From positions 303-64,302 of the forward strand of contig JASNZL010000009.1 of NCBI GenBank assembly GCA_048499675.1: a stretch of 64,000 nt of DNA, read 5' to 3'. The notes below the pieces were generated by a model. The model did no database searches. It had not been told where the DNA came from and saw nothing but the letters and a program-made list of their open reading frames with translations. Positions 8,777-60,880 of the stretch are shown one piece after another; the stretch's first letter is position 1; each line of letters starts with the position of its first letter. The position numbers and the translations under genes were made by a program. This DNA is from Candidatus Zambryskiibacteriota bacterium (GTDB lineage: Bacteria; Patescibacteriota; Minisyncoccia; Phycocordibacterales; WO2-35-19).

Positions 8777-9345
8777 GATACGAAAACTATGCGAAAGTTA
8801 CGAAAAACTACGAAAATTGTTCGGAATCAATTCTGATAATTCTTGTAGGCTTCATAAATTTTTCTCTGAAATTAACCAATAAACCCAGTTTAACTTTAGC
8901 ATGCTGTAAATAATTTTGTATTTGTCTGTAATGATCCTTCAATACGAATCTTGTAGCCTTTAATTCTAATACAATTTTATTATCAATAATAAAATCAATA
9001 ATATTTCCAGTATTTCCAATTGTAACTTCTCTACTATATGGTATGTTTTTTTCTTTAAGTTTTTGCTCAATCATATCCCCATACTGCTTCTCTCTAGCAA
9101 ATTGTCCTAATTCTTTTTTAACTTCAAATAAAACACCATTAATTGTATAGGAGAGTTCTGGATATATAACCTTACTACTATAAACTCTATTTTCTATTTT
9201 TTTACTATTACTTACCATAATGTTTATTTGCCTTTATTTTAATACTCACGGGAATTTTAATTCCTGCACATACACTTTTGGGCCACCATATTGATCTTTT
9301 GAATTTTCGTAACCTTTCGTATCTTTTCGCACGATTTTCGTATCC
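8777..9345. mobile_element. MITE-like element with ~42-bp terminal inverted repeats (aattttcgtaNcttttcgtaNctttcgcaNNNttttcgtat) carrying a GxxExxY gene. It is inserted exactly between the permease stop and the ATPase start.
   Basis: Left end 8779-8822 (reverse complement) and right end 9301-9343 align at about 85% identity. A solo copy of the same sequence occurs at 43035-43135. Confidence 0.5.
8808..9218 (-). CDS. GxxExxY-family protein (TIGR04256-like, PD-(D/E)xK nuclease-like fold)
   Basis: Motifs INGVLFEVKKELGQFAREKQYGD and IVLELKA match the GxxExxY family. 136 aa. Confidence 0.55.
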   Translation of the reverse strand: MVSNSKKIENRVYSSKVIYPELSYTINGVLFEVKKELGQFAREKQYGDMIEQKLKEKNIPYSREVTIGNTGNIIDFIIDNKIVLELKATRFVLKDHYRQIQNYLQHAKVKLGLLVNFREKFMKPTRIIRIDSEQFS

Positions 9346-9349
9346 CGTT

Positions 9350-10645
9350 TTACCTACCAAGTATCGAATCGAGCGTATTTCTCTTGACCACAATCCGCGC
9401 CGGTATATAACCAGCAATAATAGTAGCAAGCATTAACAGAAATACTCTTGTAAATGTCGCCCCTAATTCTGCCACTAATATACCGTCACTAAACGGAAAC
9501 TTTATTGGATTTGCATCAAAATACGGAACAAGAAGTCCGTATAGGAGTAAAAGTCCTACCCCTATACCAACTGTTGCATAAAATAATGATTGAAAAACAT
9601 AAGCAATTTCAATGGCTTGCGAACTTATACCTATACCTTTAAGAATTCCTATAAATTTTTTCCTTGTAATTGCATTTACAAATATAACAATAAATATGGT
9701 AATTGATGCAACCACGAGACCAATAGAACCGACCACATTACCAAGTAGTGCAAAAGTATTTTTAATATCAATTACGAATTTTGGTAAAGCATCTTCTTCT
9801 GTTTGAACTCTGGCTGTTTCTCCAATTCCAGTTTTTAGTAATGAATCTCTTACAAAGACAGGGTCAACCCCAGCATTCAATCTAACTGCCATTTCTGAAA
9901 TATTGTAGTCAGTTATACCTGCCATGTTTCGGAGCATTGAATCAAGCATATAAGCTCTAAAATCAACTTCATCAGCCTTGGTTTGAATTATACCTTTTAC
10001 TGTAAATTCTCTCGTATTTTGTCCGATTGTTATCCTAACTCTTGTTCCAGGTTCTACATTTTCCAAAAATGAAAAACTTGCTGATTCTATCGGTACATAT
10101 TTTTTTAACATACTTGATCCAAGTAAAACATATTCGGTATCGTCTGGATTTAGAAATTCTCCTTCCACAACTTTTGAAGCCAAGTTTGAAGTTTGGTTTT
10201 CAAGTACCGGATTTATCCCAGCTATTGCTCCAGCTACACTGTTTGGTGAATCTGTTAATCTAACTCTCTCTTTGTATCCGGCTTCTACAATTCCAGATTG
10301 TAAATATCTTGGTGAATATGCTCTAACCCACTGCATATTTTTGACTGTTTCTATTATTGTAGGACTATTTTCAATAAAATTCTTTTTTGGAAGTCGTGAT
10401 ATAAAAATCTCTCCAGTTGAATGTTCTCTATAAACTCTAATTGAACCCTCTATAAGACCAACGAGAACTCCTCTCACCACCACAAGATTGAGAAAAGTGA
10501 GCGTCATCACAAATATAATGAGAAACGTAGTTGCTTTACTTGATCTTTTGATTTGGCGAAATGCCAAAAAAAACCCCACCTTAAGTGAAATCAAAAAACG
10601 CTCAAATTTTCTTTTCTGTCGCTCCATAGTTTTATTATAACACAA
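9350..10645 (-). CDS. ABC transporter permease, FtsX/MacB-like
   Basis: N-terminal TM helix, large extracytoplasmic domain, three C-terminal TM helices. Same operon as the ATPase and adaptor. Confidence 0.6.
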   Translation of the reverse strand: MCYNKTMERQKRKFERFLISLKVGFFLAFRQIKRSSKATTFLIIFVMTLTFLNLVVVRGVLVGLIEGSIRVYREHSTGEIFISRLPKKNFIENSPTIIETVKNMQWVRAYSPRYLQSGIVEAGYKERVRLTDSPNSVAGAIAGINPVLENQTSNLASKVVEGEFLNPDDTEYVLLGSSMLKKYVPIESASFSFLENVEPGTRVRITIGQNTREFTVKGIIQTKADEVDFRAYMLDSMLRNMAGITDYNISEMAVRLNAGVDPVFVRDSLLKTGIGETARVQTEEDALPKFVIDIKNTFALLGNVVGSIGLVVASITIFIVIFVNAITRKKFIGILKGIGISSQAIEIAYVFQSLFYATVGIGVGLLLLYGLLVPYFDANPIKFPFSDGILVAELGATFTRVFLLMLATIIAGYIPARIVVKRNTLDSILGR

Positions 10646-10677
10646 AAAATACCCACTAATTACTAATATTCACCTGC

Positions 10678-10760
10678 CCGCAATGCTACCGCATAAGCGT
10701 TGCAGGCGGACCCGCCCGCCATTGCCACACTTCAGGCATTGGCAGGCGGGCGAATAAAAA
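10678..10760. repeat. GC-rich REP-like palindromic element (family 1: cacctgcccgcaatgctaYcgcataMgcgttgcaggcgg)
   Basis: Imperfect GC palindromes in an AT-rich intergenic region. Near-identical unit at 60793-60880. Confidence 0.55.
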
Positions 10761-11056: not shown

Positions 11057-12259
11057 TTATATATACCCTCTAGTTCCTTTATTTAACTTCGGATACGCAT
11101 TGTTATAAAGTTCATTCGCCATTTCTTTTGTTAGTGTTTTATCAGGATGTCTTAAAATTATTTTAACAAGGACATTATCCTGATCTTCAAGTGCACCAAG
11201 CTTTTCCCGTGCGATAGTAGACAGCTTCTCAAAAGGAGTTCTTTCTAAAATTTCGACTTGCTCTAATAATTCACTCTCATTACCAAAAGCATCTTTAATA
11301 GCTTCGCAAATGTCCTCCTCTGTATCATCTTTATTTATGCAGTAGGACATATCTCTGGTAATGGCCGGCTGATCAGACACAGGCTTAAACTCTTTCATAT
11401 CAAACATCTGCTTAAGAATTCTTGGATCAGTTGAACGAATAAGTCTTATATCTGGAAGATTTTTCCTTGCCATTATTAGTCTTTCTACTCCCATTCCTAA
11501 AGCCAATCCGGAATACTCATCGGGGTTAATACCCGCGTTTCTTAATATACCTGGATTAATTAATCCAGCCTCAAAAACTTCTATTTCTTTTCCATTTACT
11601 CTCGCATACACCTCAATACCATTGATGGTATAAGGATGCATAGCTTCATAAACAATCATTTCAGCATCCGGACAAGCTGCTTCAAAAACAGCTTTAGCAA
11701 GTTGGAGTAGATTTTCTCTGTTAACATTTCCATATTTTTTGTTGTTTTGTAGAGTCCAAATGTCTATTTGATGAAAAACATCTAAATGTCTAGGGTCGAT
11801 AACGTCTCTTCTATAAACCAAACCGGGGAATACAAAAGTTGAGCGGTCAACATCCCTTTCTAATTTTCTGAAAGTTGAAGGCACTAACGCTGATGTGTGC
11901 GTTCTCAGAACATGATTTTCATCAGAATATCGAGTATAAGTAGAAGACCTGCCCGGATTTCCCGATGAAAATAATAGATTATCAAAATTATCCCTTGCAT
12001 CAACTACAGGATTACCCCTTATAATGCGAATGTCTGAAAAATTATACTCACTTAACTTGTTTACAACATTATCATATATCCTCCCAACAATATTTCTTTC
12101 TTGTTCATCTTGATTTGGTGTAGGCAGAGTTAAATCATTAACCGATAATAGTTTATTAATAATCTCTGTGGATGAAACCTCAAATCTCAACCGCATAAGT
12201 AAATCTGGGTTCTCTTTCGGCACTTCTATACTTGCTTTTTTTATAGCTGATTCTTTCAT
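11057..12259 (-). CDS. pheS: phenylalanine--tRNA ligase alpha subunit
   Basis: Class II aaRS motif 2 FPGLVYRRDVIDPRHLDVFHQID. Motif 3 GLALGMGVERLIMARKNL. Confidence 0.8.
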   Translation of the reverse strand: MKESAIKKASIEVPKENPDLLMRLRFEVSSTEIINKLLSVNDLTLPTPNQDEQERNIVGRIYDNVVNKLSEYNFSDIRIIRGNPVVDARDNFDNLLFSSGNPGRSSTYTRYSDENHVLRTHTSALVPSTFRKLERDVDRSTFVFPGLVYRRDVIDPRHLDVFHQIDIWTLQNNKKYGNVNRENLLQLAKAVFEAACPDAEMIVYEAMHPYTINGIEVYARVNGKEIEVFEAGLINPGILRNAGINPDEYSGLALGMGVERLIMARKNLPDIRLIRSTDPRILKQMFDMKEFKPVSDQPAITRDMSYCINKDDTEEDICEAIKDAFGNESELLEQVEILERTPFEKLSTIAREKLGALEDQDNVLVKIILRHPDKTLTKEMANELYNNAYPKLNKGTRGYI

Positions 12260-12260: not shown

Positions 12261-13433
12261 TTAAAAATATTTATTTAAGAACTCTTTAACCTCTTTAAGT
12301 TTGACAGGGTCTGCATATTGACTCGGGAATATATTATAGTTGCTTTCTTCAAAAAGTTCCGGCCACTTATCCACAAATATCTTGCGTACCCCCTCCATTA
12401 AAGAAAGGCCAAGGTTTGGGTAAACATCTTCCACACTATGAGCTAGATAATAAATGATGTTGCGCTGGTACGTACTTTGTTCGTCTTGGCGTTCTTGGTA
12501 ATTAGACAGGCTGTATTTAGGGTAACAAGCATCCAAAATAATTTTTGGTATATCCCACAAAGGCATTAGGAGTCTTGTTGAACCAAATTTCCGTACTGGG
12601 AATTCAAGAGGTTTTTGTCCATTCATAATCGAAAACAATAAATCTGAAAGTAAATCTTCACGATTAAAGCCCAGTATATATTCATTGGCATTGTATTTCT
12701 TACAAAGTTTTCGCGCGACAATAGAGATAAGATAAGTACCAAAAAAGTGACTTGTATTACTACCAAACTTTTCACAATACTCATTATAGAAATCACTTAG
12801 AGATTTTTTCATCTTTAACAGCTCCTCTATTTCCTTATTATTATAGACATAATGTGTCAAATTATGATCGGCACAAAGTTTAGAAGCTCGTTCTGCTGCA
12901 GATGCAGGCCATATTGGCTCAAAGACGATAGTAAAAAAAATAAATTGTTTACCAATTAAGGTTTTGAGCCCTTGTGCAAGAGTATTACTATCTCCTCCAC
13001 CAGAAATACCTACAATCAAAGTTCTGCTTTGACTATTTTTTTTAATAAAATCAGTAATTTTTTCTTTTACTAAATTCTTTGCAGAATCAGGATTTAGCTC
13101 ATGAATTATTTCTCTACAGCCCTCATTTCCAAAATTAAATTCAGGAACAACTATCACCGGGTTATCGACCTTGCTATACGTGGTACTCTGTGGAAGCACA
13201 TCACGCAAGTCGGTATTCCTAATACAATGTAAAAAAATTTTTTCTTCTGGAGGAATAGCGAAAATAAAAGTATTAAGTGGAATTGGACATGTTTCCTCTT
13301 TTGTTTTTATATAACCTTGAAAAAGGTTTGGAGGAATTCGTTTTGTTCGGAGAACATCCTCTAGAGTGAGGGAATCGTCCATTTCTACCACTATCTCTTC
13401 AGAAGCGGTTTTTATAATGATACTTCTTAACAT
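12261..13433 (-). CDS. PP-loop superfamily ATP pyrophosphatase (TilS/ThiI/TtcA-like tRNA-modification enzyme candidate) with ~140-aa N-terminal extension
   Basis: SGGGDS PP-loop (LIVGISGGGDSNTL). Immediately upstream of pheS and probably co-transcribed. Confidence 0.45.
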   Translation of the reverse strand: MLRSIIIKTASEEIVVEMDDSLTLEDVLRTKRIPPNLFQGYIKTKEETCPIPLNTFIFAIPPEEKIFLHCIRNTDLRDVLPQSTTYSKVDNPVIVVPEFNFGNEGCREIIHELNPDSAKNLVKEKITDFIKKNSQSRTLIVGISGGGDSNTLAQGLKTLIGKQFIFFTIVFEPIWPASAAERASKLCADHNLTHYVYNNKEIEELLKMKKSLSDFYNEYCEKFGSNTSHFFGTYLISIVARKLCKKYNANEYILGFNREDLLSDLLFSIMNGQKPLEFPVRKFGSTRLLMPLWDIPKIILDACYPKYSLSNYQERQDEQSTYQRNIIYYLAHSVEDVYPNLGLSLMEGVRKIFVDKWPELFEESNYNIFPSQYADPVKLKEVKEFLNKYF

Positions 13434-13894
13434 ATACTAACAAGTGCAAAATACTAATTGAACGCCGCAAGGGATGATGTACACATTATATGTTCTATCT
13501 TAGTATCGGTTAAACTACATAATCCTTTGTCAGCTAAGGAAATAAAAAGGTTCTTATCGGTATTCTCAGAAATGATCCCAATCTTACGAATTTCTTTTTT
13601 AGCTAATGTAGAAGAGTTTTTCATATTATATATTATTAAGTTTATTAATAAAAACTAGATGAAATCGCATTTATGCACGAAACGCGAATACACATATTTA
13701 TAATACACGGAGTTATAATATTGTCAATTTTTTGTATAACCACACCCATTTTTACACTCGACTCGTAGTTTAGAAACAAATAACTGGAACAGGAAAGAAC
13801 CTTTAGTGAGGTTAGTTTTTTGAAAGAATAGTGGAATCGTTTGATATTGTAGAACAAAAAATAATTTACCATCTTTCTTATTAGCATGATTCGC

Positions 13895-13985
13895 CCGCCT
13901 GCAACGCCTGGAGCGTAGCACTGGCGGGCAGGCCCGCCTGCCAGCGCCTGAAGCGTAGCACTGGCGGGCAGGCCCGCATTAGCGG
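13895..13985. repeat. GC-rich REP-like element, two tandem ~43-bp units (family 2: gcccgcctgc-N-agcgtagcactggcgggcagg)
   Basis: Direct tandem duplication of a GC palindrome in an AT-rich intergenic region. Confidence 0.55.
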
Positions 13986-16208: not shown

Positions 16209-16262
16209 ATAATTTAGCGAAATCATGTCGCACAATACCACACTTTGAGGTGCAACCTAGAT

Positions 16263-17513: not shown

Positions 17514-17522
17514 AAAATAAAT

Positions 17523-18425: not shown

Positions 18426-18532
18426 GAGAGTTAAAAGTTAAAAGTTTTAAAGTTCATCAAGTAAAAAAGAATTTGATATTGTTTAATTTTCACTTTTTAA
18501 CTTGCGCTTTTATAACTTTATAAACTAAGCTT

Positions 18533-23455: not shown

Positions 23456-23490
23456 CCAATTTTTATGCTATATTAGCTCTAAACTCCATT

Positions 23491-25332: not shown

Positions 25333-25334
25333 AA

Positions 25335-27292: not shown

Positions 27293-27299
27293 AAAACCT

Positions 27300-27850
27300 T
27301 TTTTTAAAACGCAAAACTCACTTCCCTAGTTCCATTATCCAATCTTCCTTCTACTTTTTTCTTCTTTTTTCCCTATCCAACTTATTTTCCTTCCCCTTCC
27401 GTCAAATTCGACCTGTCTTATTTCCCTCCTCCGCCTTATTCGTCCTATTAGTCCTATCCGTCCTATTAGTCCCATCCGTCCGATTCCCTCTCTCTTTTTC
27501 TTTCCTTTTTCGATTCGTCCCATCCGTCCCATCCGTCCTATCTGTCTTATTTCCCTCCTCTGCCTTATTTGTCCTATCCGTCCTATTCGACCTATAAGTC
27601 CTATTTGTCCTATTAGTCCTATTTCCCTCCCCGCCCTATCAGTCCTATTCGACTTATCCGTCCGATTCCCTCTCTCTTTTTCTTTCCCTTTTTAATTTGT
27701 CCCACCGTCCTATTAGTCCTATCCGTCCTATCCGTCCTATCTGTCTTTTTTGTCCTATTTCCCTCCTCTGCCTTATTTGTCCTATCCGTCCTATTCGTCC
27801 TATCCGTCCTATCCGACCTATTGGTCCTATTTCCCTCCGCTTTCTTCGTC
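27300..27850. repeat. 9-bp tandem repeat array 3
   Basis: Longest array. Several copies of the conserved blocks. Its 3' part overlaps the acidic C-terminus of the 27827..28489 gene. Confidence 0.8.
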
Positions 27851-28489
27851 CCCTTTTCCTTCTTCGTCATCTTCAATTGGAACCACCCTACCGTCTATCA
27901 ACCTCTTACGACCGTTCTCTTTTAAAATCCTAGCGTACACCTCATCATCATTCCCAAAAATCTGCTCCTTTTTCACCTCCCTCTTCCTATCATTAAAATC
28001 CCCATTCACCTTAAACTCTTCCTCCAAAACTTTTATCTGATTATCAAGCAAATAATTGGTTTGATTAATAAGACAAAGCAAACAATTCCCAGCAATTTCT
28101 GGATGCTTCATATAAGCCGAGTATGTTTTACTCGTCTTTTCGGGCAATCTCGCAATCTCCCTAATCTCAATCGTTCGAGGATCGTCCTTCTTCCAAATTG
28201 AGAGGTTGTTTACTCTCAAATAATCCAAAATGTCGTTTTTTAATTCCTCCTGACTACCTCTGGCAACATTCAAAAGCCTAATCTCGGTTTGTTTTGAGGT
28301 AGCCGAATTTAAACTACCTTCGCTTATGTTTTGTTTGCCCGCTCTCGCCGCCCCCTCCATCTGTTCTTTCATTTTAAACGATTTGACGTAAAGTTTGCAA
28401 AATTCAAAAGTTAAATCAAAAACTATTTCGGCGCTCTGAAAAGATTTGAGTTTGTTGTAGCCACCATGTTTTGCAATTAAATCAGTCAT
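27827..28489 (-). CDS. four-helix-bundle protein (23S rRNA IVS protein / Avd-like family) with ~90-aa acidic C-terminal extension
   Basis: KSFQSAEIVFDLTFEFCKLYV...NISEGSLNSATSKQTEIRLLNVARGSQEELKNDI matches the TIGR02436/PF05635 pattern. Confidence 0.5.
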   Translation of the reverse strand: MTDLIAKHGGYNKLKSFQSAEIVFDLTFEFCKLYVKSFKMKEQMEGAARAGKQNISEGSLNSATSKQTEIRLLNVARGSQEELKNDILDYLRVNNLSIWKKDDPRTIEIREIARLPEKTSKTYSAYMKHPEIAGNCLLCLINQTNYLLDNQIKVLEEEFKVNGDFNDRKREVKKEQIFGNDDEVYARILKENGRKRLIDGRVVPIEDDEEGKGDEESGGK

Positions 28490-28539
28490 TTTTTTAATTT
28501 AATTTTTAATTTTAATTCTAATTTTATTCTAATTCAAAT

Positions 28540-28960
28540 TGTAATTCTAATTTTATTTTTAATTCGTCCCATCCGTCCTATCCGTCCTATTCATTTTTTA
28601 TTTGCCCTATCCGACCTATAAGTCCTATTTCCCTCCTCTGCCTTATTTGTCCTATCCGTCCTATTCGACTTATCCGTCCTATCAGTCCTATTCGACTTAT
28701 CCGTCCGATTCCCTCTCTCTTTTTCTTTCCTTTTTCGATTCGTCCTATCCGTCCTATTAGTCCTATCCGTCCTATTTCCCTCCTCTGCCTTATTTGCCCT
28801 ATCCGTCCTATTCGACTTATCCGTCCAATTCTCTCTCTTTTTCTTTCCCTTTTTAATTTGTCCTATCTGTCCAATTTTTTTATTTACCCTATCCAACCTA
28901 TAAGTCCTATCTGTCTTATTTGCTCCATCCGACTTATTGGTCCTATCAGTCCTATTTCCC
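28540..28960. repeat. 9-bp tandem repeat array 4
   Basis: Same units and blocks. Preceded by an AATTCTAATTTT AT-rich repeat at 28495-28560. Confidence 0.8.
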
Positions 28961-30991: not shown

Positions 30992-31171
30992 CGTAATTAA
31001 CCTAATTATACTAATTAACCTAAATAAATCCTAAACCCTAATTAGAAATTAAAAATTCAGTAAAAATTTTTCCCTATACTTCTGCATAAGTTCAGAAACA
31101 TATGAGACTCTGATTTTTGATTTTATATGTCTTTTTATCTTAAATCTTAAATCTAATTTATTAACACACTC

Positions 31172-31702
31172 CTAAAACGAAAAACTCTCCACAAACATCT
31201 TAAGCAACTCCTCTTCTCCTTCCTCGCAAGTTACTTGATACAAAACTCCTTCCTGAATAAACCAAACATCCCAAACTCTTCCCATTGTCTCGTGTTCTGA
31301 AGCAAAACTCACAGCAGAAATTTTTGCCTTTGGTAATTCTATATCCAAAAGTGATTCTATTTTTTCACCCGCCAAATCTCTCCTTACAGTATTTGAATCA
31401 ACTTTTACACTAGTATCAACTTCCGAAATATAGACTTGCATTCCCTTTCCTTCCCTCAAAACCAAAATACCCTCACCAAATCCATCTTCTACAATAGATA
31501 GGGTGTGAGAACTTGGATAATCAAAACTAAAACCAAGTGTTGAATGGACAAATACCAACATCTCGGTTTTGCCATAAACCCCTTTTGTATCTATATCCAA
31601 AATATCACCAAGACTTCTAGGACCTTTTTCACCACCACTAAAGTAAATTATTATTAGAATAACAATCACCACAAACAGTCCTGTGTAAATCACCTTTTTC
31701 AT
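31172..31702 (-). CDS. membrane-anchored/lipoprotein-like small protein, unknown function
   Basis: N-terminal TM/signal segment. 176 aa. Confidence 0.35.
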   Translation of the reverse strand: MKKVIYTGLFVVIVILIIIYFSGGEKGPRSLGDILDIDTKGVYGKTEMLVFVHSTLGFSFDYPSSHTLSIVEDGFGEGILVLREGKGMQVYISEVDTSVKVDSNTVRRDLAGEKIESLLDIELPKAKISAVSFASEHETMGRVWDVWFIQEGVLYQVTCEEGEEELLKMFVESFSF

Positions 31703-31744
31703 ACTTTTGTTAATTTCTTTTTTATCTCTTTAACTTTACCGTTT

Positions 31745-32230
31745 CAACTCTCCCCTTTTATTTTATCTTGCCCCAATTCGTCCTATTTGTTTATCCACCC
31801 CATCTTCCTTTTTCCTTATCTGTCCTATTTGTCCTATGAGCCCCATCCGTCCTATTTCCCCTCTCTTTCCTCATCGGTCTTATACGTCCTATTTCCCTTC
31901 TCTGCCTTATTCGTCCTATTAGTCTTATTGGTACTATTTCCCTCCCCGCCCGCCATTCGTCCTATAAGTCCTATTTCCTCTCTCTTTTTCTTTCCCTTTT
32001 TAATTTGTCCTATCCGTCCGATTAGTCTTATTAGTCCTATTCGTCCTATTCGACCTATCGGTCCTATTTCCCTTTTATACGTCCTATTTGTCCTATCCGT
32101 CCGATTAGTCTTATTAGTCCTATTCGTCCTATTCGACCTATCGGTCCCATTTCCCTTTTATACGTCCTATTTGTCCTATCCGTCCAATAAGTCCTATTTC
32201 CCGCCCCCCTTCCTTCCTCTTACAACAAAC
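31745..32230. repeat. 9-bp tandem repeat array 5
   Basis: Contains an internal ~90-bp duplication (32030-32110 and 32111-32190). Confidence 0.8.
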
Positions 32231-37799: not shown

Positions 37800-37985
37800 T
37801 TCTTTTTTTAATTGACCCTTTCTGACTTATACGTCCTACTTGGTCTTATTCGTCTTATTGGTCCTATTTGACCTATCCGACTTATTCGACCCATCGGACC
37901 CATTCGTCTTATTGGTCCTATTTGACCTATCCGACTTATTCGACCCATCGGACCCATTCGTCCTATCGGTCCTATGGATTTTCTG
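37800..37985. repeat. 9-bp tandem repeat array 7, including 2x a 54-bp unit
   Basis: tcgtcttattggtcctatttgacctatccgacttattcgacccatcggacccat appears twice. Confidence 0.75.
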
Positions 37986-40900
37986 TAGAAGATGGCTCAA
38001 CCGGAGCTTCTACAACCGGCTCCTCAACTACTGGTTCCTCTACCGACTCCTCCACTACCGGCTCTTCAACCGCCGGTTCCTCTACTGGCTCCTCAACCGG
38101 TGTTTCCGAAACTGTGGTCCCATCACTTACTGTTTCCTCACCCGAAGTATCATCGCTTGTAGTATTATCGTCAGTACTACCTCCCCCTGATTCACCTCCC
38201 GAAGTTCCACCATCAATTGCCGGACTCTGCCCTGCCGAATTCAAAATCTGTTGTAACTCAGTCTTTGTAATACACACATCATCCAAGCACAACACTTCAG
38301 TCTCCACTCTTTGCGCAGTAATTTTTTCTACAACTAGATTAACAAGTTTTACAAAATTATTTCCAATCTCCAAACCGATTTTCTTCAAGAAATTAAATAG
38401 CCCAGCAAACACAGTCGGTACTTCCAAACTTTCGCCACCATTCAAATCAGCAATTTCTACACCTCCAACATCTCTCCAACCTTTTTCTACCAAAACTATA
38501 GTAATCTCACTTGTTGTCGTAATCCCGTCCACCACTTTTTCAGTTGTAGTCGCAAGAGTCAATGCGCGCCCAACAGTATATCCACTTTCTATCATTTTAA
38601 CAGCAACCCCCGGAGTAGTTGATGATAATGTCAAATAATCACCAACTGCAATATCTCCATTCTCATTTGAAACTTTTACTGGCACCTGTCCGACCAAAGC
38701 CACAAGGACATTGTATTTTTCGTAATTAACATCACAATCAATATCACCCACCTTACACACTGGACCATTTCCAACAAATCCGGGATTTGTGGAAACAATT
38801 CCAACCGGTTCGTTCATTCCCAAAGTTTGGTAATCTGCTCTCAAAACAGCATTTTCTCCAACTTGATCGAGCATTACAATCTCACCCGCAACAGGCAAGT
38901 TATTTGTATCTGCCACTCTGAAGTATTCGGCCAAGTCAGCGCCTGATGTTGTATATGCGACAGCACTTGCACCTCCTTGGATTTTACCGGCCACAGTTCC
39001 CGCACCATCAGAAAATCCAATAAAGTAGTTGCCCGTTGTTCTGCTTGCATTTGCAACACCAAGCGAAATCAAAAGTCCATCTGCTCCAGTACCTGTGTTT
39101 TTGTTATTTATTCTAGCGATATAACTTGAAGCACTATCTCCGTCTACATTCAAGGTGTAAGTAAGAGTACTTGTTCCTATACCAACGCTTTGACTTGCGC
39201 TATTTACAACAAGAGCAGTAGAACCAGAACCATTCTGAATATTTAACGCTGTTGTGCTTGAAATATTCATAAACAAACCTCCTGAAGCAGTAAATCCAGA
39301 CAGGAATGTTCCGCCAGAAGAAAACATATTTAACAGATTTGATGTCTGCCCCGCAGACGCAGTTATGTCTATACCAGAATTATTCGTTGATGAAGTATCT
39401 ACCTCAAAAACAGGAGAACCAGCAGAAGTTTGAATAGAGAAAGCGGTCGTAGATGAAAGTCTTTGAATAAAAGAGCCCCACTGATTAACTTCAATCACGG
39501 TCCCACCTGTTGAGGTTGCAATTCTAAATATATCCGCGGAAGCAGAACCTTGTATAGCAAGTTTGGCTCCCGGTGAAACAACACCAATCCCCACATTTCC
39601 TCCCAAAGGATTTAATGTCATATCAAGAGCGATGCCTCCCGCTGTTTTTGTTCTAGCTTGAATCCAAGAAGCATTGCCACCGTTAACACCCAGAGCCAAG
39701 ACTGCATTCGTTGTACTATTTCCAAACAAAGCGCCTCTCGTTGGAGCAACTGAGAGTGCTTCTATCGCACCATCTCCCGCGTTGTTTACATGAAAACCAA
39801 CATTTGGAGTAGTGGTGCCAATCCCCACATTTCCATCTTGATTTACAATGATTCTGTTTTGATTATTAGTCCAAATGCTTGCCGTTGTTGCATCCACATT
39901 AAATCTCTGATTTTGAGTAGTTGAATCTCTAAGTCCACCACCAGCCCCAACAATATAATTTCCGGTCACATAAGCCGTTCCAATAACAGTAAGTTCTTGA
40001 GATGGGCTTGCAGTTCCTACTCCAACTTTCCCATTATTCAAAACAGTAAAGAGTGAAGTTGTTGCGCTTCCAGTTGAGCTTGCAATATTGAATAGTGTTG
40101 TATTTGTCTCACCATTGTTTGCGTGAATAGAAAGTTTTGCGTATGGTGATGTGGTGCCGATTCCGACGTTGCCATCATTTTGTCTTATATATAGTTGCCC
40201 AGAATTAAAATTAAAATTACCTGCCCCACTTATTGTTAGTCTCTGGTTTGCTCCACCTGTTCTAAATATAACAGAACCACTTCCAAAGTTATCAAAATAT
40301 AGTCCTCCTTGACTTGTTCTAAACACCATATTTCCTGCTTGGTCTAAAGAAAATATACCCGCACCCCCAACTGTTTGGAATGAGATTTCTGCCTGAGATG
40401 ACAGAGCTGTAGATTGTGCTTTAATTTTCGCACTACCAACAGTTGAATATACATGCAACATTTCACTCGGACTCACCGTCCCCACCCCAACATTCCCATT
40501 ATCCAAAATAGTAAATCTTTCTGTGTCAGCACTGTCACTCACTGCAAATGCTCTACCTGTAGTTGTCCCACCACCTTTGACTGATAGTTTTGCACTTGGG
40601 CTAGTTGTTCCAATGCCGACGTTACCTCCGCTTGCTTGAATCACAAAATTTCCATATCCCGTACCTGTCTTTGCTCCGTAGTAAGTTAGTGTTCCGTTAC
40701 CGGTGGTATTAAATGTAAACCAACCACCCACTTCCCCAGTATTCAAACCTTGCCCAAACATTAATCCAGCAGTTGATGCGCCGTACAAATGTAGGTTACT
40801 CTGAGGATTTGTCGTCCCGATGCCAACCCTACCAGAATTTTGCTGAACTATAAATTGGGAATTGCCAACAGTGAAGCCACCTGTTGAGATGGTTGATGTA

Positions 40901-42879: not shown

Positions 42880-42939
42880 CTATCTGCTTTTTTGTTTTTT
42901 ATGTTTTGTTTTAAACTTTTACCCACTAATTACTGTTGA

Positions 42940-44679
42940 CTATTGACTCTTATCTCTAAACTCTTGCTCCTCAACTATTGACTGTTGACTCTCAACTGTT
43001 GACTCTTCATTCGTGTCGAGTTTAGTGTCATTTGAAAAATTTTCGTAGCTTTTCGTATCTTTCGCCCGCCTGCGAGCGCCTGCAGTCGCAGACAATGGCG
43101 GGCAGGCATAATTTTCGTATCGTTTCTTTTTCTTAAACAACAGCAACCAAAATTTTCTAAACAACCAAATCAAGAGTAGAACAAAAAGTATGAACCAGAA
43201 GTATTCAGACAAAATAATTAGAAACCCTGTTATTTTGTCAGCCAAAACAAAATTGTTTGATAGAGCAAGTGATGCAACAAGATTCCCGTCTATTTTTTTT
43301 AGTCCTTGATTTTTGTGATCGAGAATAGATATATGCATTCCGTAATTTCCAGATCTGCCAAGTGGAGCAATCACCGCCTCATAACCATTTTTTTCTTTGT
43401 TTATCCTCAAAAGGAAAGAGAATACTTTTGATGGATCTATCGGGTCGTAGAGTGTGATACTAATTGTTTTTAAAACTTCAGGAACTTTTTCGTAAGGCAG
43501 TCTGACTGTAAATGGTTTATCGCCAATAAGAGAAACTGTGTTTTTTTCAAATGGAAGTATTTTTCCTTCTTGAATAAATTCAAAATCTAACAAAGACAAC
43601 TCTTCTATCATTTGATCTACAATCGGGGATTTTGGGAGGAAGTCATATATATAAGGAGTGTGATCTACTATTTCCCCCGGTAGCGCTATGCGAGCATGAG
43701 CAATCGCTCCAGACGCATAATTTCCATTTTTATCTACCGCAAAAATTGTATAGAAATACAATTTTCCTTTTTCTACATCTCTATCAACATAAGATTCGCC
43801 TAATCCTCTATAAATTTCTTTTCCATCTAATATGTCCTTCGGGTAAAAAATGTCTGAACGGATTATCCTCACTTCTCTTAGATCTTTATCTGGTGGATTG
43901 TTCCAAGACAAATCTATCGACGAATCATTTTGTATTGCAACAAAATTTATTGGGTTTGAAGGTGGAGTAAAGTCAGGCAATGATTTTGTTTGGAATGTGG
44001 TTTCGGCAACCACCTGTCTACCAAAAGCATCTACTGATTGTATCTTTATATAGTATGAGGTATCACTCTCAAGATCTGAGATTTTTATATTGTGTGCCGG
44101 AATATATAATTTGCTTTGTATAGAACCCAACTCATAGTCTTTTGTTTTTCCCCAGAAAACCGTTCCCAAAGTAGCCCTGTTTGTTATCCAATTAATGACT
44201 GCAGAATCTGGCTGTGTAGCAATGTTTATATTGATAAAAATCAAAGAACTTCCACCGGGAGGCCCGACTACAGGTTTTGGAGTTGTAACAAGGACCGAAT
44301 CAGAAAGAGGCGATTCATTTGTTGCATTATCTACGGTAGACACTCTATATTCATATAAAGTATCTGCTTGTAAGTCAGTGTCGTAGAAAAATAAATCTGG
44401 AGTAGTTCCTATAAACACACCGTCTCTATATATCTTGTAATGAAGAATTCCAGCCGAAGCTGTCCCAGCATCCCAAGAAAGGTTGATTTGGCTCGTCGAT
44501 ACTGCTGTAGCGACGAGGTTGGTCGGGGCAGTTGGTGGTATACCATCTGTCACTGTTACACTCACCTCAAAAGTGCTCTCAGAAGCATAGACGTTTTTTA
44601 CACCAGAAAATGAACCAAACAAAAGAACGAGACAAACGTAGGCTGATATTATTTTTTTACTTTTTGAATTTAATTTCAT
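42940..44679 (-). CDS. membrane-anchored surface protein with fibronectin type III domains. Its C-terminal tail is encoded partly by an inserted REP/TIR sequence.
   Basis: Signal peptide. FN3 motifs (PTAPTNLVA...INLSWDA...YEYRVSTVDNATNES). C-terminal TM helix and KKKKR stop-transfer. The tail codons ACPPLSATAGARRRAKDTKSYENF derive from the GC palindrome at 43065-43112. Confidence 0.55.
   Translation of the reverse strand: MKLNSKSKKIISAYVCLVLLFGSFSGVKNVYASESTFEVSVTVTDGIPPTAPTNLVATAVSTSQINLSWDAGTASAGILHYKIYRDGVFIGTTPDLFFYDTDLQADTLYEYRVSTVDNATNESPLSDSVLVTTPKPVVGPPGGSSLIFININIATQPDSAVINWITNRATLGTVFWGKTKDYELGSIQSKLYIPAHNIKISDLESDTSYYIKIQSVDAFGRQVVAETTFQTKSLPDFTPPSNPINFVAIQNDSSIDLSWNNPPDKDLREVRIIRSDIFYPKDILDGKEIYRGLGESYVDRDVEKGKLYFYTIFAVDKNGNYASGAIAHARIALPGEIVDHTPYIYDFLPKSPIVDQMIEELSLLDFEFIQEGKILPFEKNTVSLIGDKPFTVRLPYEKVPEVLKTISITLYDPIDPSKVFSFLLRINKEKNGYEAVIAPLGRSGNYGMHISILDHKNQGLKKIDGNLVASLALSNNFVLADKITGFLIILSEYFWFILFVLLLIWLFRKFWLLLFKKKKRYENYACPPLSATAGARRRAKDTKSYENFSNDTKLDTNEESTVESQQSIVEEQEFRDKSQ
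43035..43135. repeat. solo copy of the MITE terminal repeat (ttttcgtaNcttttcgtatctttcgc...attttcgtatc) split by a family-2 GC-rich REP palindrome (43065-43112)
   Basis: Aligns with the right inverted repeat at 9301-9343. The 3-nt 'acg' is replaced by a 46-nt palindrome gcccgcctgcgagcgcctgcagtcgcagacaatggcgggcaggc. Confidence 0.5.
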
Positions 44680-44682: not shown

Positions 44683-45462
44683 CTAGATTGGCAACAAAGT
44701 TAAGGTTGTAGTAGCTGTGTATGTGCCCTCCGGCTGATTTCCTCCGTATATAACTTCTGCTTGGAATTTTATTGTGGTAGTTGCACCATTTGGATGATTA
44801 CCACTATTTCTAGTACTTATTATTTTTTCTGTAGTACTTAAACCGTCCCAACATTTATTTTCATTTGAACTAGTCCCAGCATTACAAGAAAAACCATTAT
44901 TTTTGTAAGCATTTGAAACATCCAAACCATACGGATTGAATCCGAAGTGAGAAACAGTAGGTTGATTAAAGTCTAGATCGGGATCTGCTCCTATTGGTGA
45001 GTAGTCAGCAAAACTGTTTGCTCCCCAAGTCAATGCAGGAGAACTAAGAGCCTTTATTGACAACTCATAACCAGAAGGACTATCTGTCGTTACAACAACA
45101 GAAGTAGTGCCCGAAGCAATACCGCCTGTGATTCCAGCAATTGATGGTAGTAATACAACATCTGGAGCAGAAGTCATTGCTAAATAAACTTCTTGCATTT
45201 GTTGATAGCCTGCTTTTAATCTGTATGAAGTGCTTCCCGATTCACCCGTAGCTATTTCTCCAAAAGTATCTTCGATTATGTAGCTTGCAGAATCAGAGTA
45301 AGCTCCTCCAAAATTTATGCTATCACTTTGTATTTTATAACTACCACTAGACATAACCTGTCCAAAAACTTGACCAAAGGAAAAAATGTTTACTACAAAC
45401 AAAATTAAAAATGGAATATAAAATTTAATTTTGTTTAATTTAATTTCTTTTTTTAAAAACAT
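44683..45462 (-). CDS. secreted beta-rich surface protein, WxL-domain-like (paralog of 46475..47155)
   Basis: Signal peptide. Shared motifs with the paralog (GxTGGxxxGxTxVVVxTxxxxGY, TATTTLT C-terminus). Confidence 0.3.
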   Translation of the reverse strand: MFLKKEIKLNKIKFYIPFLILFVVNIFSFGQVFGQVMSSGSYKIQSDSINFGGAYSDSASYIIEDTFGEIATGESGSTSYRLKAGYQQMQEVYLAMTSAPDVVLLPSIAGITGGIASGTTSVVVTTDSPSGYELSIKALSSPALTWGANSFADYSPIGADPDLDFNQPTVSHFGFNPYGLDVSNAYKNNGFSCNAGTSSNENKCWDGLSTTEKIISTRNSGNHPNGATTTIKFQAEVIYGGNQPEGTYTATTTLTLLPI

Positions 45463-45481
45463 TTTGTTTTGTTATGACAAT

Positions 45482-46465
45482 TTATTTCCTTTTAATCTCA
45501 AATTTAGACATAACCAATTTAATCAGAGTAATCACTATTACAAAGAACACGAACACGAGACCTACGAGCATCCAAGGTATTACGTAAAACGTAACAACTT
45601 TTGTGTCAATTATGTTGTCATAACCTCTATTAACGTTAAGTTCAGCATCATATTTCCCAAACAAAAATGATGGGCTCCAAGACACCTCTCTTAACCTAAG
45701 AGAACTCGGCATCGCAAACCATGGCTCTATTTCTACAAGACCAACCTCCTGACCAAAAATGTTTTTGATTGAAATCTCTCCATATGGATTCAAGTGAACA
45801 GAACCTTCGTTTCTATAAAGAATCTGGAAATTAACTGGCGAACCTGATATGAATTTTTTATCACCAACAATTTTGAAATCTGTAACTTCTCCTTTTTCAT
45901 TGACGTCCCCTGGGACTCTAACAAAAAAGAGTATTCCTATTCTAGAAACTATTGCAGTACCACCGGTTGCACCCGATACTTCTCGCCCTTGGTTTAGTGT
46001 TGTTGTTGTAACAAGAATAGTTCCATAATGACCCCCCGGTTCTACATCTTGAGGAACAGATATTTTAACTGGAATTGTAGCTCTTTCATTGTTTTTAAGC
46101 TCAAATCTTTTTGGCTCAAAAATAAGATAGTCTCTTAGTGAATACGGACCTTTTTCATCTCCAAGCAATACGACAGTTTGGTTTGTAGATTCAGAACCAA
46201 TAAAATCTTCTACTTGGAGTTCGAACATTCTATCCTCACCCATTCTATTACTTACATATATATCGATTGTTCGTGATTCACCAGGACTCAATAAAACATC
46301 AACTTTCCCAGGGCCAACTACAAAATCTCTAGTTCCAGAATATTCTCCCAATTGTTCAATTTTGTAATTTGCGTAAACAGATGCAGAAGGAACAACAAGA
46401 AACAACAAAAACATTAAAGCAAGGAATGGTTTCTTTATTCTTTTTTTAATTTTTATTTTTTCCAT
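45482..46465 (-). CDS. surface protein with N-terminal signal peptide and C-terminal TM anchor (DUF916/CscA-like partner of WxL proteins?)
   Basis: 327 aa. C-terminal TM helix VGLVFVFFVIVITLIKLV followed by basic residues. Sandwiched between the two paralogs. Confidence 0.3.
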   Translation of the reverse strand: MEKIKIKKRIKKPFLALMFLLFLVVPSASVYANYKIEQLGEYSGTRDFVVGPGKVDVLLSPGESRTIDIYVSNRMGEDRMFELQVEDFIGSESTNQTVVLLGDEKGPYSLRDYLIFEPKRFELKNNERATIPVKISVPQDVEPGGHYGTILVTTTTLNQGREVSGATGGTAIVSRIGILFFVRVPGDVNEKGEVTDFKIVGDKKFISGSPVNFQILYRNEGSVHLNPYGEISIKNIFGQEVGLVEIEPWFAMPSSLRLREVSWSPSFLFGKYDAELNVNRGYDNIIDTKVVTFYVIPWMLVGLVFVFFVIVITLIKLVMSKFEIKRK

Positions 46466-46474
46466 ACTCGTTTG

Positions 46475-47155
46475 TTAATTTGTTGTTGCTGTTAGTGTGG
46501 TTGTTGCTGTGTATACGTCTTCAGGAATAAGTGGTATTGGATTTGGGTTTATAGTTAGTCTGAATTTTAGAGTTGTAGTAGATCCGGAAGTTGGTGTGAA
46601 TGTATTCCTGTTTACTAAGACATAGTTTGTTGTTGTTGCATTAAGCCAACATCTATCTGCTGTATTTGATGATCCGGTTCCACAAGCTGAAGTACCGTTA
46701 TCTAACCAACTTGGCGCTAGGTCAGAAGTTGTACTTGCTTCTACGGAATAACCAAACTCAGCAGTATTTGCGGGTACCGAAAAGATAAAGTCAGGTACAC
46801 CGGGAGTTGTAGGTGTGTAGTTTGGAATTACTCCACCCTGTGTATGCCCTTGCATTGCAGGAGTCGAACTTGCTTTCAGTGTCATTGTGTATCCCGCGCT
46901 ATCGTTTGTTACAACCACAACTTGTGTTTGTCCGTTTGACGTACCTCCAGTCAAACCGGGAATAGAAGCTAGTGTTACATCTGTGGCGGGAACCGAAAAG
47001 GCAACTTCAGACGTAACAGAAACGCTTACCGTAAACTGATCTTCTATAGCAAGCAAGTTGGTTGGTTCTAAAGTTGAGAACCCAGCAAAGCTTATTAGGC
47101 TTAATATGAGGGCCCCAACTATAATTTCTTTTGTGTGTATTTTTTTTGCATTCAT
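46475..47155 (-). CDS. secreted beta-rich surface protein, WxL-domain-like
   Basis: Signal peptide. PSWL...CWL motifs. Confidence 0.3.
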   Translation of the reverse strand: MNAKKIHTKEIIVGALILSLISFAGFSTLEPTNLLAIEDQFTVSVSVTSEVAFSVPATDVTLASIPGLTGGTSNGQTQVVVVTNDSAGYTMTLKASSTPAMQGHTQGGVIPNYTPTTPGVPDFIFSVPANTAEFGYSVEASTTSDLAPSWLDNGTSACGTGSSNTADRCWLNATTTNYVLVNRNTFTPTSGSTTTLKFRLTINPNPIPLIPEDVYTATTTLTATTN

Positions 47156-47205
47156 TTTAATAAATTAATAATTTGAACTAATAATTTTTAAAAGAGTTGA
47201 AGAAT

Positions 47206-48441
47206 TTATTCTTTCTCTTTCATCGGCACCAAAACATACATATAATCTTCTCCTCTTTTTTCCCTAAAGACGGGTGTAATTGTGCCTGACACACCATCTT
47301 CATCGACCTTTATTTCAACTTCATCCGAAAATGAACTTTGAATGTTGTTTGTTAATGTCTGTCTTACACGCTCATCTTCAGCGTAAGGTAAGACGACCAA
47401 ACCATTGGGATAATTTTGTGAATCTCTTTCAGCCGATATATTTGTAACCGCCGTATCTCCATCATAAAAAAACTTATCTCCAGAATTAGCAGGAGTATTT
47501 ACTGCCACATTACTTCCAAACATAACTTTTATGACAGCCATTCTGATTTTGTAATTCCAGAAAGAAATTTTCTTTTTTGCTTTACTAATAAAATTATCTG
47601 TACTTTTTAAGTCATACTTGTCGGATCCATAGTCAGTACTCAAAAATACACCTGCAACTACAGACGCTTTATTTGAAACTCGATCACCAAACATATCCAA
47701 TTTTTTTGAAATCTCTCTCAAATCAAAACTTTCTTTTATCAGAGATGCCCTTGTTGCAAATTGTGCATCTATCAAACTTTCTTCATTTTTTGACCAGACA
47801 AAAATAAGCAACAAAACCGCCATGAGAGAAACACCGACAGTGTTTCTAAACATTCGAAGATTAAAAATTTCACTGTTTTTATTTTTTTGAATGACTGTTG
47901 GACTAGTTTTTGAATGCAAAAACTTATCTGCGTTTGCTTTGGTAATCTTTGGGAAAAGAAAATACTCATCCTCTAATTCATACGTAATGAAAGTATTATT
48001 GCTCTTTACAATCTTGAGTGAAGGAAGGTATGTGTTTTTTTCATATAAGGTTTTGCGGATAAATGACAAATCCTCAGTAGAACTGTCGAGCACAGTTTGA
48101 TTAATTGAAGTGGCTTCAGGAGTAGCTCCTTCAACATCTTCTGTTTGAAAATATTTTTTATTATGGTCTTGGTTTTCTTGACTAACAATTTTTTTAGTTG
48201 TATCAATTTTTTTAACCGATCTAAGTGATTTATATTTTCTTCTAGCTAATCTAGTTTTTGCAGATTTCTTGTGGTTAATCAAATCACTCTCAGAGACAAA
48301 CCAAAAGTGTCCGATCATAATTCCATCTACTTTTTTTGATCTACAAAGTTGGCCTATGTAATCGGTCGTGTAGCCAAAAATTTTTTCGGCACTACTAGCC
48401 GAGATATACTTTTTCCCTTTTTCAAAAATAGGCTTATCCAT
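47206..48441 (-). CDS. single-pass membrane protein with cytoplasmic N-terminal domain, unknown function
   Basis: TM helix near residue 200 (GVSLMAVLLLIFVW). 411 aa. Confidence 0.3.
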   Translation of the reverse strand: MDKPIFEKGKKYISASSAEKIFGYTTDYIGQLCRSKKVDGIMIGHFWFVSESDLINHKKSAKTRLARRKYKSLRSVKKIDTTKKIVSQENQDHNKKYFQTEDVEGATPEATSINQTVLDSSTEDLSFIRKTLYEKNTYLPSLKIVKSNNTFITYELEDEYFLFPKITKANADKFLHSKTSPTVIQKNKNSEIFNLRMFRNTVGVSLMAVLLLIFVWSKNEESLIDAQFATRASLIKESFDLREISKKLDMFGDRVSNKASVVAGVFLSTDYGSDKYDLKSTDNFISKAKKKISFWNYKIRMAVIKVMFGSNVAVNTPANSGDKFFYDGDTAVTNISAERDSQNYPNGLVVLPYAEDERVRQTLTNNIQSSFSDEVEIKVDEDGVSGTITPVFREKRGEDYMYVLVPMKEKE

Positions 48442-49675: not shown

Positions 49676-49720
49676 CTTATTGTATCCATATCAAACCCTC
49701 AGGGATTGATATGACAACCT
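49676..49720. repeat. 15-bp-arm inverted repeat (tatcaaaccctcagg-N14-cctgagggtttgata), IS200/IS605-like subterminal hairpin
   Basis: Perfect palindrome 70 bp upstream of the HUH transposase gene. Confidence 0.5.
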
Positions 49721-49791
49721 GAGGGTTTGATACTTATCCACACCCCAAAACACATCCCCCCATTAACCTGATATTATTAAATTATCAAAAT

Positions 49792-50454
49792 ATGAGATAC
49801 GAAACATTTACAAGTAATGAATATTATCACTTATACGCTCGTGGTTCTAATCAAGAGAATATTTTTATTGACGAGCATGACAAAGTGCGTTTTATTTTTT
49901 TGTTATGTCTTTACACTTCCCCAACACGGATCAACAACACTTTTTGGTACGTAAACAATTTCATTAAAAAAGGCGTTTTTGGTTTTAAACCAGACAAACT
50001 TTCGGATGTGACCAAAGATAAAAGCTTGGAACTTAACTGCTTCTGTGTTATGGATAATCATTTTCATATATTAGTCCGCAACGTGGAAGATAATATGATT
50101 TCTGTGTATATGCATAGAGTACTCACTGCATACAGTAAATACTTTAATGCAAAGTATCGGAGAAAAGGTCATGTTTTTGATGGACCATACAAGGCTGTCC
50201 ACATTAAAAACAACAACCAAATACTTCATTTATCAGCCTATATACACAAGAATCCTAAGGATATAAAAGAGTGGTCAAATAAGTATGAGAAATACCCTTG
50301 GTCCTCTCTCTCAGACTACATAAGTACAAATAAGTGGGGTAATTTTATAAGTAAGGACATAATACTTGGTCAATTCAAAACACAAACAGATTACAAAAAT
50401 TTTGTGTCCACAAGCACAGCAAAAGAATATTTATTTGAGGATTTGCTCAAATAA
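49792..50454 (+). CDS. IS200/IS605-family Y1 HUH transposase-like protein (RAYT-like), 220 aa
   Basis: HuH motif DNHFHILV. Catalytic-Tyr region LHLSAYIHKNP. The 3' end overlaps gatB convergently by 24 nt. Confidence 0.55.
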   Translation: MRYETFTSNEYYHLYARGSNQENIFIDEHDKVRFIFLLCLYTSPTRINNTFWYVNNFIKKGVFGFKPDKLSDVTKDKSLELNCFCVMDNHFHILVRNVEDNMISVYMHRVLTAYSKYFNAKYRRKGHVFDGPYKAVHIKNNNQILHLSAYIHKNPKDIKEWSNKYEKYPWSSLSDYISTNKWGNFISKDIILGQFKTQTDYKNFVSTSTAKEYLFEDLLK

Positions 50455-60792: not shown

Positions 60793-60880
60793 TCCACCTG
60801 CCCGCAATGCTATCGCATACGCGTTGCAGGCGGGCCTGCCCGCAATGCTATCGCATACGCGTTGCAGGCGGGCGAATTCA
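60793..60880. repeat. GC-rich REP-like element, two tandem 43-bp units (family 1)
   Basis: cctgcccgcaatgctatcgcatacgcgttgcaggcgggc x2, about 95% identical to 10678-10720. Confidence 0.6.

Follow-up and report, generated by a model that had tools for sequence, protein, structure and literature searches.

A GC-rich hairpin element nested in a solo cassette repeat at the 3′ end of an FN3 surface-protein gene of a Zambryskiibacteriota bacterium

Results

The 3′ end of a gene for a surface protein with FN3 domains in a Candidatus Zambryskiibacteriota bacterium (assembly GCA_048499675.1, contig JASNZL010000009.1, positions 303 to 64,302 of the forward strand) is probably a landing zone for small selfish repeats, with the open reading frame (ORF) reading straight through them. 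The window, by which we mean the whole stretch of 64,000 nucleotides (nt) that was analysed, is AT-rich, with a guanine-plus-cytosine (GC) content of ~35%. The FN3 protein gene (42940..44679, minus strand; from the ORF list and Pfam) encodes 579 amino acids (aa) with a signal peptide, FN3 (fn3, 8.9e-13) and Pur_ac_phosph_N-like (1e-07) domains, a C-terminal transmembrane (TM) helix and a cytoplasmic tail, and it has 302 homologs, mostly in Patescibacteria. The helix comprises residues 492-515 (codons at 43135..43206, minus strand) and is followed by the stop-transfer signal KKKKR (residues 516-520; 43120-43134, minus strand). What remains, residues 521-579, is a tail of 59 residues whose location in the cytoplasm is predicted from the positive-inside rule. 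A solo copy of an array-type terminal repeat, of the kind found around a GxxExxY gene cassette elsewhere in the window, sits directly behind KKKKR, and a 42-nt GC-rich hairpin element (HP) is inserted into this repeat after TTTCG, without duplication of the target. With 14 codons and no stop codon in the GC-rich insert, the frame is kept and the tail grows to its 59 residues. That the tail is encoded by selfish repeat DNA is real and, as discussed below, not without precedent.

The solo terminal repeat occupies 43034-43064 and 43107-43121 and is a third copy of the 45-nt repeats that bracket the cassette at 8776-9350. Where the tail begins, the plus strand has the sequence GAAAAATTTTCGTAGCTTTTCGTATCTTTCG [42 nt] CATAATTTTCGTATC; the outer part of the repeat (CATAATTTTCGTATC; 43107..43121) encodes YENY(A) directly behind KKKKR, while the inner part (43034..43064), of which TTTCG are the last bases, encodes KDTKSYENF. 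Without the insert, the solo copy (GAAAAATTTTCGTAGCTTTTCGTATCTTTCG|CATAATTTTCGTATC) agrees with the left cassette repeat (CAATTTTCGTAGTTTTTCGTAACTTTCG|CATAGTTTTCGTATC) at 39 of 43 positions, the two have the same order of four ~10-nt units, including the variant second unit TGCGAAAG, and the solo copy can be aligned to the terminal inverted repeat at either end of the element. The 28-mer AATTTTCGTAGYTTTTCGTAWCTTTCGC is found at only two sites in the window (8791-8818, minus strand, and 43038-43065, plus strand), and 100 shuffles gave no match. The original prediction, made from the sequence of this stretch, that the tail matches the terminal repeat of an element therefore holds. Chance similarity between low-complexity sequences, or an assembly chimera, would do away with any biology here, and the region is indeed of low complexity, with recurring TTTTCGTA-like words and abundant tandem arrays. 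Against this stand the empty shuffles, the unit order and variant unit common to both repeats, an independent Logan assembly (L004) with the same FN3 protein and the same composite of repeat and HP, and an HP family that recurs across hundreds of contigs, produced by many projects with many assemblers, and we regard an artifact as next to impossible.

The parent of the solo repeat had been taken for a MITE (a miniature transposable element with inverted repeats), and this had to be given up, as the parent carries a gene: the 45-nt inverted repeats (8776-8822 and 9296-9350, with four TACGAAAAT-like units) of the element at 8776..9350 (minus strand) bracket a gene (8808..9218) for a 136-aa protein of the GxxExxY / PDDEXK_3 family (Pfam, 1.1e-20; TIGR04256, 5.7e-20). 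The element occupies the spacer between an FtsX permease gene and an ABC ATPase gene, from 5 nt past the FtsX stop codon to the ATPase ATG. At the same site, the relative L243 (FtsX 95% identical) has a gene for a PF05635 "23S rRNA IVS protein" with AT-rich inverted repeats of its own (1394-1842), and L242 (FtsX 93% identical; 11279-11489) has no gene, only CACGAAT/GTTACGA arrays around a mini GC hairpin. The three fillings differ, and each stops exactly at the ATPase ATG; their occurrence in close relatives indicates that the split repeat belongs to a class of exchangeable small-gene cassettes. Long inverted repeats bracket a small gene of the PDDEXK_3 or PF05635 type both at 8776-9350 in the window and at 1394-1842 in L243, while the copy in the FN3 tail is one cassette arm alone. 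L242 also encodes (1-1390, minus strand) a 765-aa LepA-like GTPase with a PDDEXK_3 (GxxExxY) domain reported within its GTP_EFTU domain, as if an entire cassette gene had come to be read as part of the frame of a housekeeping gene.

The hairpin itself (43065..43106, plus strand; CCCGCCTGCGAGCGCCTGCAGTCGCAGACAATGGCGGGCAGG, with the family form CCCGCCTGC…GCGGGCAGG) is recognised by a covariance model with 38.2 bits (E 4e-06) and codes, in frame, for residues 526-539 of the FN3 protein, the minus-strand reading being CPPLSATAGARRRA. It lies, as had been predicted, within the 3′ end of the ORF beyond the TM helix and KKKKR. A palindrome of 46 nt replacing a central "acg" had been described, and neither detail stands: the exact limits give 42 nt, the left repeat has CGC-ATA-G at this place, and the insert lies cleanly between TTTCG and CATA. 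Excision of the HP in silico gives …KKKKRYENYA|KDTKSYENF… with the downstream frame and the stop codon unchanged; since 42 nt are 14 codons and the HP has no stop codon, the frame is kept in its presence as well. The original prediction had also looked to other copies of the terminal repeat for the target site. Two copies without HP are present in the window, with the junctions CTTTCG|CATAG and TTTTCG|CACGA compared with TTTCG[42 nt]CATAA in the solo copy, so that the HP site follows TTCG and no base was replaced or duplicated by the insertion. Removal of the 42 nt thus restores the state of the two paralogs, in agreement with the proposed nested insertion.

A second comparison of filled and empty sites is offered by a MITE-like carrier element that has ACCCAC…GTGGGT at its ends and contains CACGAAT units. 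The L001 carrier has no HP (CATGATTCG|TGAAGATTCG) and the L242 copy has one, again behind TTCG (TATGATTCG[HP]TGTAAATTCG). This 122-nt HP-bearing copy (L242 8672-8795) lies in the spacer at the L27 gene, where the window (~14800) has none, and the HP-less copy (L001 ~11620-11690) forms the end of the FN3 gene there. An origin of the flanking direct repeats by duplication of the target site was rejected, as neither of the two HP-less versus HP-bearing pairs has a duplication. Taken together, these comparisons support the nested insertion. A remodelling of the coding terminus by repeats is supported as well.

The remodelling is best seen in the closest FN3 ortholog, P0001 (loci L001-L003), which is 92% identical and has 550 aa. 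Its tail starts with KKKKR-CEN-LSNDT, compared with KKKKR-YEN-[YACPPLSATAGARRRAKDTKSYEN]-FSNDT in the window, and reads KKKKR-CEN-LSNDTNNEVEKSESNPQITRIFTNHDE; it has 30 residues versus 59. An alignment of the window with L001 places the difference in an in-frame block of 72 nt (24 codons; 43048..43119) that is not in the L001 gene and comprises the HP and some three repeat units of 10 nt; owing to the presence of TACGAAAAT at both ends, the limits of the block may shift by as much as ~9 nt. The more distal part of the tail (…ESTVESQQSIVEEQEF…) is encoded by a 21-nt tandem array of 3.5 copies (42932..43004; Tandem Repeats Finder) that extends beyond the stop codon (42940-42942), and it cannot be aligned between the window and L001 in spite of flanks that are >90% identical. 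The small carrier element bounded by ACCCAC…GTGGGT encodes, in L001, the final 14 residues together with the stop codon (SNPQITRIFTNHDE*). A 15-mer in the window, TACCCACTAATTACT (42920..42934), matches the end (ACCCAC…/…GTGGGT) of this carrier in L242 and L001 and has an exact second copy at 10650-10664, adjoining an HP doublet. FN3 orthologs with ~45% identity have unrelated, K/R-rich tails of 10-30 residues past the helix. Orthologs sharing the tail without signatures of repeat DNA would have spoken against the original prediction; the tails differ instead, and the 72-nt in-frame difference from a 92%-identical ortholog agrees with its proposal that repeats have remodelled the coding terminus.

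The 72-nt block could also have arrived in one step, as a single module of units, HP and unit at a pre-existing TRCGAAAAT unit, in which case array-HP-array would be what transposes or converts. All 72 nt are missing from L001, which retains one TGCGAAAAT unit, many genomes have units of the same array on both sides of the HP, and the units adjoining the HP in PyrG (L093) and SecA (L079) are extra compared to the family profile or to the E. coli sequence, all of which would fit such a module. However, the same four-unit repeat is present twice in the window without an HP, GatA and DnaX have insertions of the HP only, with no array, and the L001 and L242 carriers differ by the HP alone. In addition, L001 is not close overall (GatB 73% identical), and the absence of the block could equally be due to a deletion between the TACGAAAAT direct repeats. 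We therefore consider a one-step arrival unlikely compared to insertion of the HP into a resident repeat. The proteins of adjacent housekeeping genes are quite diverged between L001 and the window, with 73% identity for GatB and for a 305-aa protein, 56% for a 411-aa protein and 53% for a MerR-like protein, whereas the pilus-like and FN3 genes (44683-48441 in the window) encode proteins with 92-98% identity. Near-identical pilus and FN3 genes amid far less similar housekeeping neighbours suggest that this surface-structure locus was recently exchanged between the two lineages.

The HP in the FN3 gene is one of several in the window. A search for GCCCGCCTGC with at most one mismatch gave 8 matches where 0.66 were expected, and the covariance model finds exactly 7 HP units at 4 loci, 3 of them intergenic and 1 intragenic. 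The intergenic loci are tandem doublets at 10673..10750 (minus strand), at 13894..13972 (plus strand, inverted relative to the former) and, between grpE and dnaK, at 60797..60872 (minus strand). In all three doublets the units abut directly, head to tail, and at all four loci TTCG precedes the HP on the HP strand. L242 has a decayed HP alone where the window has intact doublets. The first two doublets, together with TACCCACTAAT / ATTAGCGGATTGGTGAGTA motifs, bracket in inverted orientation a 3.1-kb segment (10650-13996) with genes for a monomeric PheRS-like protein (11057..12259) and a PP-loop ATPase (12261..13433), which is missing from the orthologous L242 spacer; this segment resembles a composite, cargo-carrying element.

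Could the hairpin be maintained for a role in the transcript, such as 3′ stabilisation, RNase targeting or attenuation before the downstream 1635-aa gene, with the effect on the protein a mere by-product? On the mRNA strand, the 54-nt stretch that holds it (43060-43113) has a stable fold (-27.5 kcal/mol, z -3.3), the HP lies ~120 nt before the stop codon with a very large gene next, and REPs (repetitive extragenic palindromic sequences) elsewhere affect mRNA stability (PMC3733652). On the other hand, the HP copies of the window lie in both orientations relative to transcription, which argues for a DNA-level element, no U-tract follows the HP, the ortholog has no HP, and an Rfam scan of the whole window gave a tRNA alone, with no Rfam family matching the HP. 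The family-wide bias for in-frame copies described below likewise points to constraint at the protein level and not to a positional RNA function. A selected RNA element is thus very unlikely in our view.

Of 126 HP copies from low-GC contexts, 30 fall within open frames that are 250 codons or longer, and 27 of these 30 have a length divisible by three, versus 46 of the 96 located elsewhere (Fisher p=2e-5). The host genes include those for GatA, PyrG, DnaX, SecA, UvrC and O-antigen-ligase-like proteins, with the HP lying within Pfam domains, and the intragenic copies are read in at least 4 combinations of frame and orientation. In GatA and DnaX, the sequence without the HP fits the family, as read by eye; phmmer of the L070 GatA against PDB chains opened no gap at the insert, so that the insertion there is placed by eye and from Pfam coordinates. 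HP copies inside genes thus appear to survive when they are in frame and would hence be translated. The in-frame bias also argues against removal of the intragenic copies by RNA splicing.

HP copies were gathered by exact match to the 9+9-nt arms, with TTCG as part of the pattern in a scan of species-representative genomes and with no flank in the pattern in a scan of metagenomes. The genome scan gave at least 117 loci, in metagenome-assembled genomes (MAGs) labelled as at least 12 Patescibacteria classes and in others labelled as Lentisphaerae, Kiritimatiellia and Prosthecobacter, as well as some chance matches in GC-rich genomes; MAG labels may be unreliable, and this taxonomic breadth is therefore provisional. 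At least 120 loci were found in the metagenomes, and IMG/VR contributed 71 stretches, with at least 8 copies on some phage-like contigs. The HP is 36-44 nt long, its 9+9-nt arms form a stem in which a C·A and a T·G have fixed places, and in unselected 40-mers two interleaved inner helices both have compensatory changes. The covariation of the inner helices was 0.165 compared to 0.082±0.015 in shuffles, with 0 of 500 as high, and controls with slid positions were lower. The neighbouring genes are ordinary housekeeping genes.

The surroundings of the HP are repetitive at many of these loci. In 19/45 and 29/58 copies (42-50%), the two flanks have a word of 6 nt or more in common within ±24 nt, versus 14% of control positions, and the HP lies in phase between the units of 7-14-nt tandem arrays whose sequence varies by locus. 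In the set selected for TTCG, removal of the HP restores a perfect TTCG|YA unit, of which the 3′ side was outside the search pattern. The flank-free set has no shared 5′ tag, and the only position that stands out is T at +1 (26/55 copies); on the 5′ side of the filtered copies, GTAG occurs in 4/55, TTCG in 4/55 (within the last 10 nt) and CGTC in 0/55. TTCG was consequently rejected as a universal target on account of these diverse 5′ flanks, and it holds for this lineage and for the TTCG-selected genome scan.

Some HP copies are found in other company. In L149 (1437-1700), L027, L054, L062, L183 and L232, they lie in the D-, anticodon- and T-loops of tRNA copies that are incomplete or disrupted and have intact tRNA genes beside them; in L149, two HPs lie within a disrupted tRNA-Thr, as does a complete tRNA-Thr(GGT) between HP-like arms. 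In phage-like contigs of IMG/VR with capsid and Mtd_N genes (L251, L254, L261, L282, L293 and L312), a single 36-nt HP variant is present many times, with GGACACAGA direct repeats at its flanks.

The sole candidate mobiliser in the window is a Y1_Tnp gene (49792..50454, plus strand; IS200-like, HUH tyrosine transposase fold; Pfam, 4.6e-09), and the sequence data make its link to the HP a weak one. A tblastn search with the GxxExxY and Y1_Tnp proteins against ~120 HP loci matched only L001 and L011, for Y1, and a PDB sequence search with the Y1_Tnp protein gave no match. About 60 nt upstream of the gene, at 49690-49733, lies a palindrome with a perfect stem (ATCAAACCCTCAGGG…CCTGAGGGTTTGAT) that is unrelated to the HP and could be the hairpin of the Y1_Tnp gene itself.

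Discussion

Our results can be explained by a sequence of events in which a cassette arm and then an HP came to lie in a reading frame that tolerated them. The HP insertion would be a selfish event accepted by an unconstrained cytoplasmic tail, and not an adaptation. The HP would move as single-stranded DNA by means of a hairpin-recognising enzyme of the REP-associated tyrosine transposase (RAYT) or IS200/IS605 type, which would insert it 3′ of a short target (TTCG in this lineage). Once in an mRNA, the HP may serve as a stability or pause element.

Several of our observations weigh against this account. TTCG is not a general target, as only ~2 of the 124 listed flank-free metagenome copies follow it. 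No enzyme could be linked to the HP in the window, at the HP loci or in the phage-like contigs: the Y1_Tnp gene scores 40 bits against a cut-off of 80 (NCBIfam REP_Tyr_transpos) and has no HP within kilobases, L001 has a syntenic Y1_Tnp (75% identical) yet no HP in 18 kb, and in the HP-rich phage-like contigs, which have capsid, Mtd_N and methyltransferase genes, no transposase was seen. The 30-nt array difference relative to L001 could reflect three units gained in the window or lost in L001; the protein database has no third close FN3 relative, the next match being 48% identical. A length of 42 nt, divisible by three, is a one-in-three chance for a single event, and the translation of the tail is predicted from its open frame.

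Conceptually, the locus is of the kind known from REPs and from Rickettsia palindromic elements (RPEs). There are resemblances to the REPs, the REP doublets forming hairpins (REPINs) and the RAYTs of E. coli, Pseudomonas and Stenotrophomonas: the HP is a GC-rich imperfect palindrome of 35-44 nt with non-Watson-Crick pairs at fixed positions, it is often paired and polymorphic in its presence among relatives, and the window, where 3 of the 4 HP loci lie between genes, has a Y1_Tnp gene. Intragenic REPs, many of them in replication and repair genes, have been reported (PMC3733652). In contrast to REPs, the HP has no GTAG or CGTC tag, TTCG being the tag in this genome with no consensus across the metagenomes, and its copies also keep phase with the short tandem arrays that surround them. 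The Y1_Tnp gene has no HP copies at its flanks and falls below the RAYT cut-off, and homologs of it are found at only 2 of ~120 HP loci. REPINs have an inverted arrangement, unlike the head-to-tail HP doublets. REP families are usually species- or genus-specific, whereas HP arms that are identical or nearly so occur across MAGs with labels of different phyla and on phage-like contigs.

RPEs are palindromic selfish DNA that is found in frame in unrelated genes, including housekeeping genes, and is translated (PMC10969869). The in-frame bias of the intragenic HP copies, with GatA, PyrG, DnaX and SecA among the hosts, follows this pattern. RPEs are nevertheless ~100-150 bp long, AT-rich like their host, confined to Rickettsia and give a conserved peptide, whereas the HP has 36-44 nt, is rich in GC while its host is AT-rich, and is read in both orientations and more than one frame, and the two have no sequence relation. 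The HP thus acts like an RPE and is not a member of that group.

Two further systems of mobile hairpins, and the cassettes of the 23S rRNA, are also comparable. The mobile G+C clusters in the mitochondria of yeast, other fungi and algae are short GC-rich palindromes in an AT-rich genome, single or in tandem, with short preferred targets and occasionally in coding sequence. They differ from the HP in being organellar and unrelated in sequence, and we know of no association of theirs with arrays. Like the IS200/IS605 elements and the palindrome-associated transposable elements (PATEs), the HP is defined by a hairpin and, in this lineage, inserted 3′ of a short sequence (TTCG) without duplication, as in the two filled-versus-empty comparisons. 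Unlike the IS200/IS605 elements, it is a hairpin alone with no distinct left and right ends, its target varies across lineages, and no tnpA or tnpB is linked to it. The split repeat, for its part, belongs to a small gene cassette of the class of the 23S rRNA intervening-sequence (IVS) cassettes, which have a PF05635 four-helix-bundle protein or TIGR04256 GxxExxY: the parent element has a 136-aa GxxExxY gene between long inverted repeats, and a relative has a PF05635 gene with inverted repeats of its own at the identical site. In contrast to these, the cassette of the window lies in an mRNA spacer and not in rRNA, and the copy in the FN3 tail is solo, with no gene or partner arm, so that no long stem is possible.

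The literature yielded nothing relevant on the arm sequences, GxxExxY or Patescibacteria REPs. From the pattern scans of MAGs we suggest, tentatively and with rather more reserve than for the FN3 locus, that the HP is an undescribed and very widespread GC-rich hairpin, present in many Patescibacteria classes, some PVC-group and other MAGs and phage-like contigs, with arms that are near-invariant among copies gathered by exact match to them, interleaved covarying helices, in-phase insertion into arrays, a presence in the loops of tRNA pseudo-copies and in-frame colonisation of essential genes. If this is true, the HP would be a counterpart, across the candidate phyla radiation (CPR), of what has been called "selfish DNA in protein-coding genes", acting through broadly shared recognition machinery.

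For the FN3 gene, the tail, and in the sister genome also the stop codon, is written by mobile repeats and varies between near-identical loci; it should not be taken as a functional motif, nor be used for orthology. More generally, these GC-rich palindromes in AT-rich, streamlined CPR genomes appear to be active enough to vary among close relatives. HP copies are likely to be a source of peptide insertions in CPR proteins and a trap for gene callers and domain boundaries, and their presence or absence could serve as a strain marker. The clean filled-versus-empty pairs, with TTCG and no duplication, provide a starting point for finding the enzyme that moves the HP.

The rest of the window contains typical Patescibacteria genes, such as dnaK, grpE, ribosomal protein genes and the FtsX/ABC pair, as well as a weak match to the CPR-pilus protein PamT. 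Other repeats are also present. The region 1733-4414 has ~50% GC in this 35% GC genome and contains two paralogous ORFs (1824..2990, 388 aa, and 3181..4356, 391 aa) with 86-88% identical upstream stretches and no Pfam match for either. Very many 9-nt periodic repeats (CGTCCTATT-like) run across several large ORFs at 23050-32220 and 37830-38000, and on the minus strand these would encode collagen-like Gly-X-Y triplets. Finally, 43-nt inverted arrays of AACTTTA-like units at 14831-14873 and 18429-18471, 84% complementary, lie around 3.5 kb including the L27 gene, and the stretch 14831-18471 may be another array-bounded segment.

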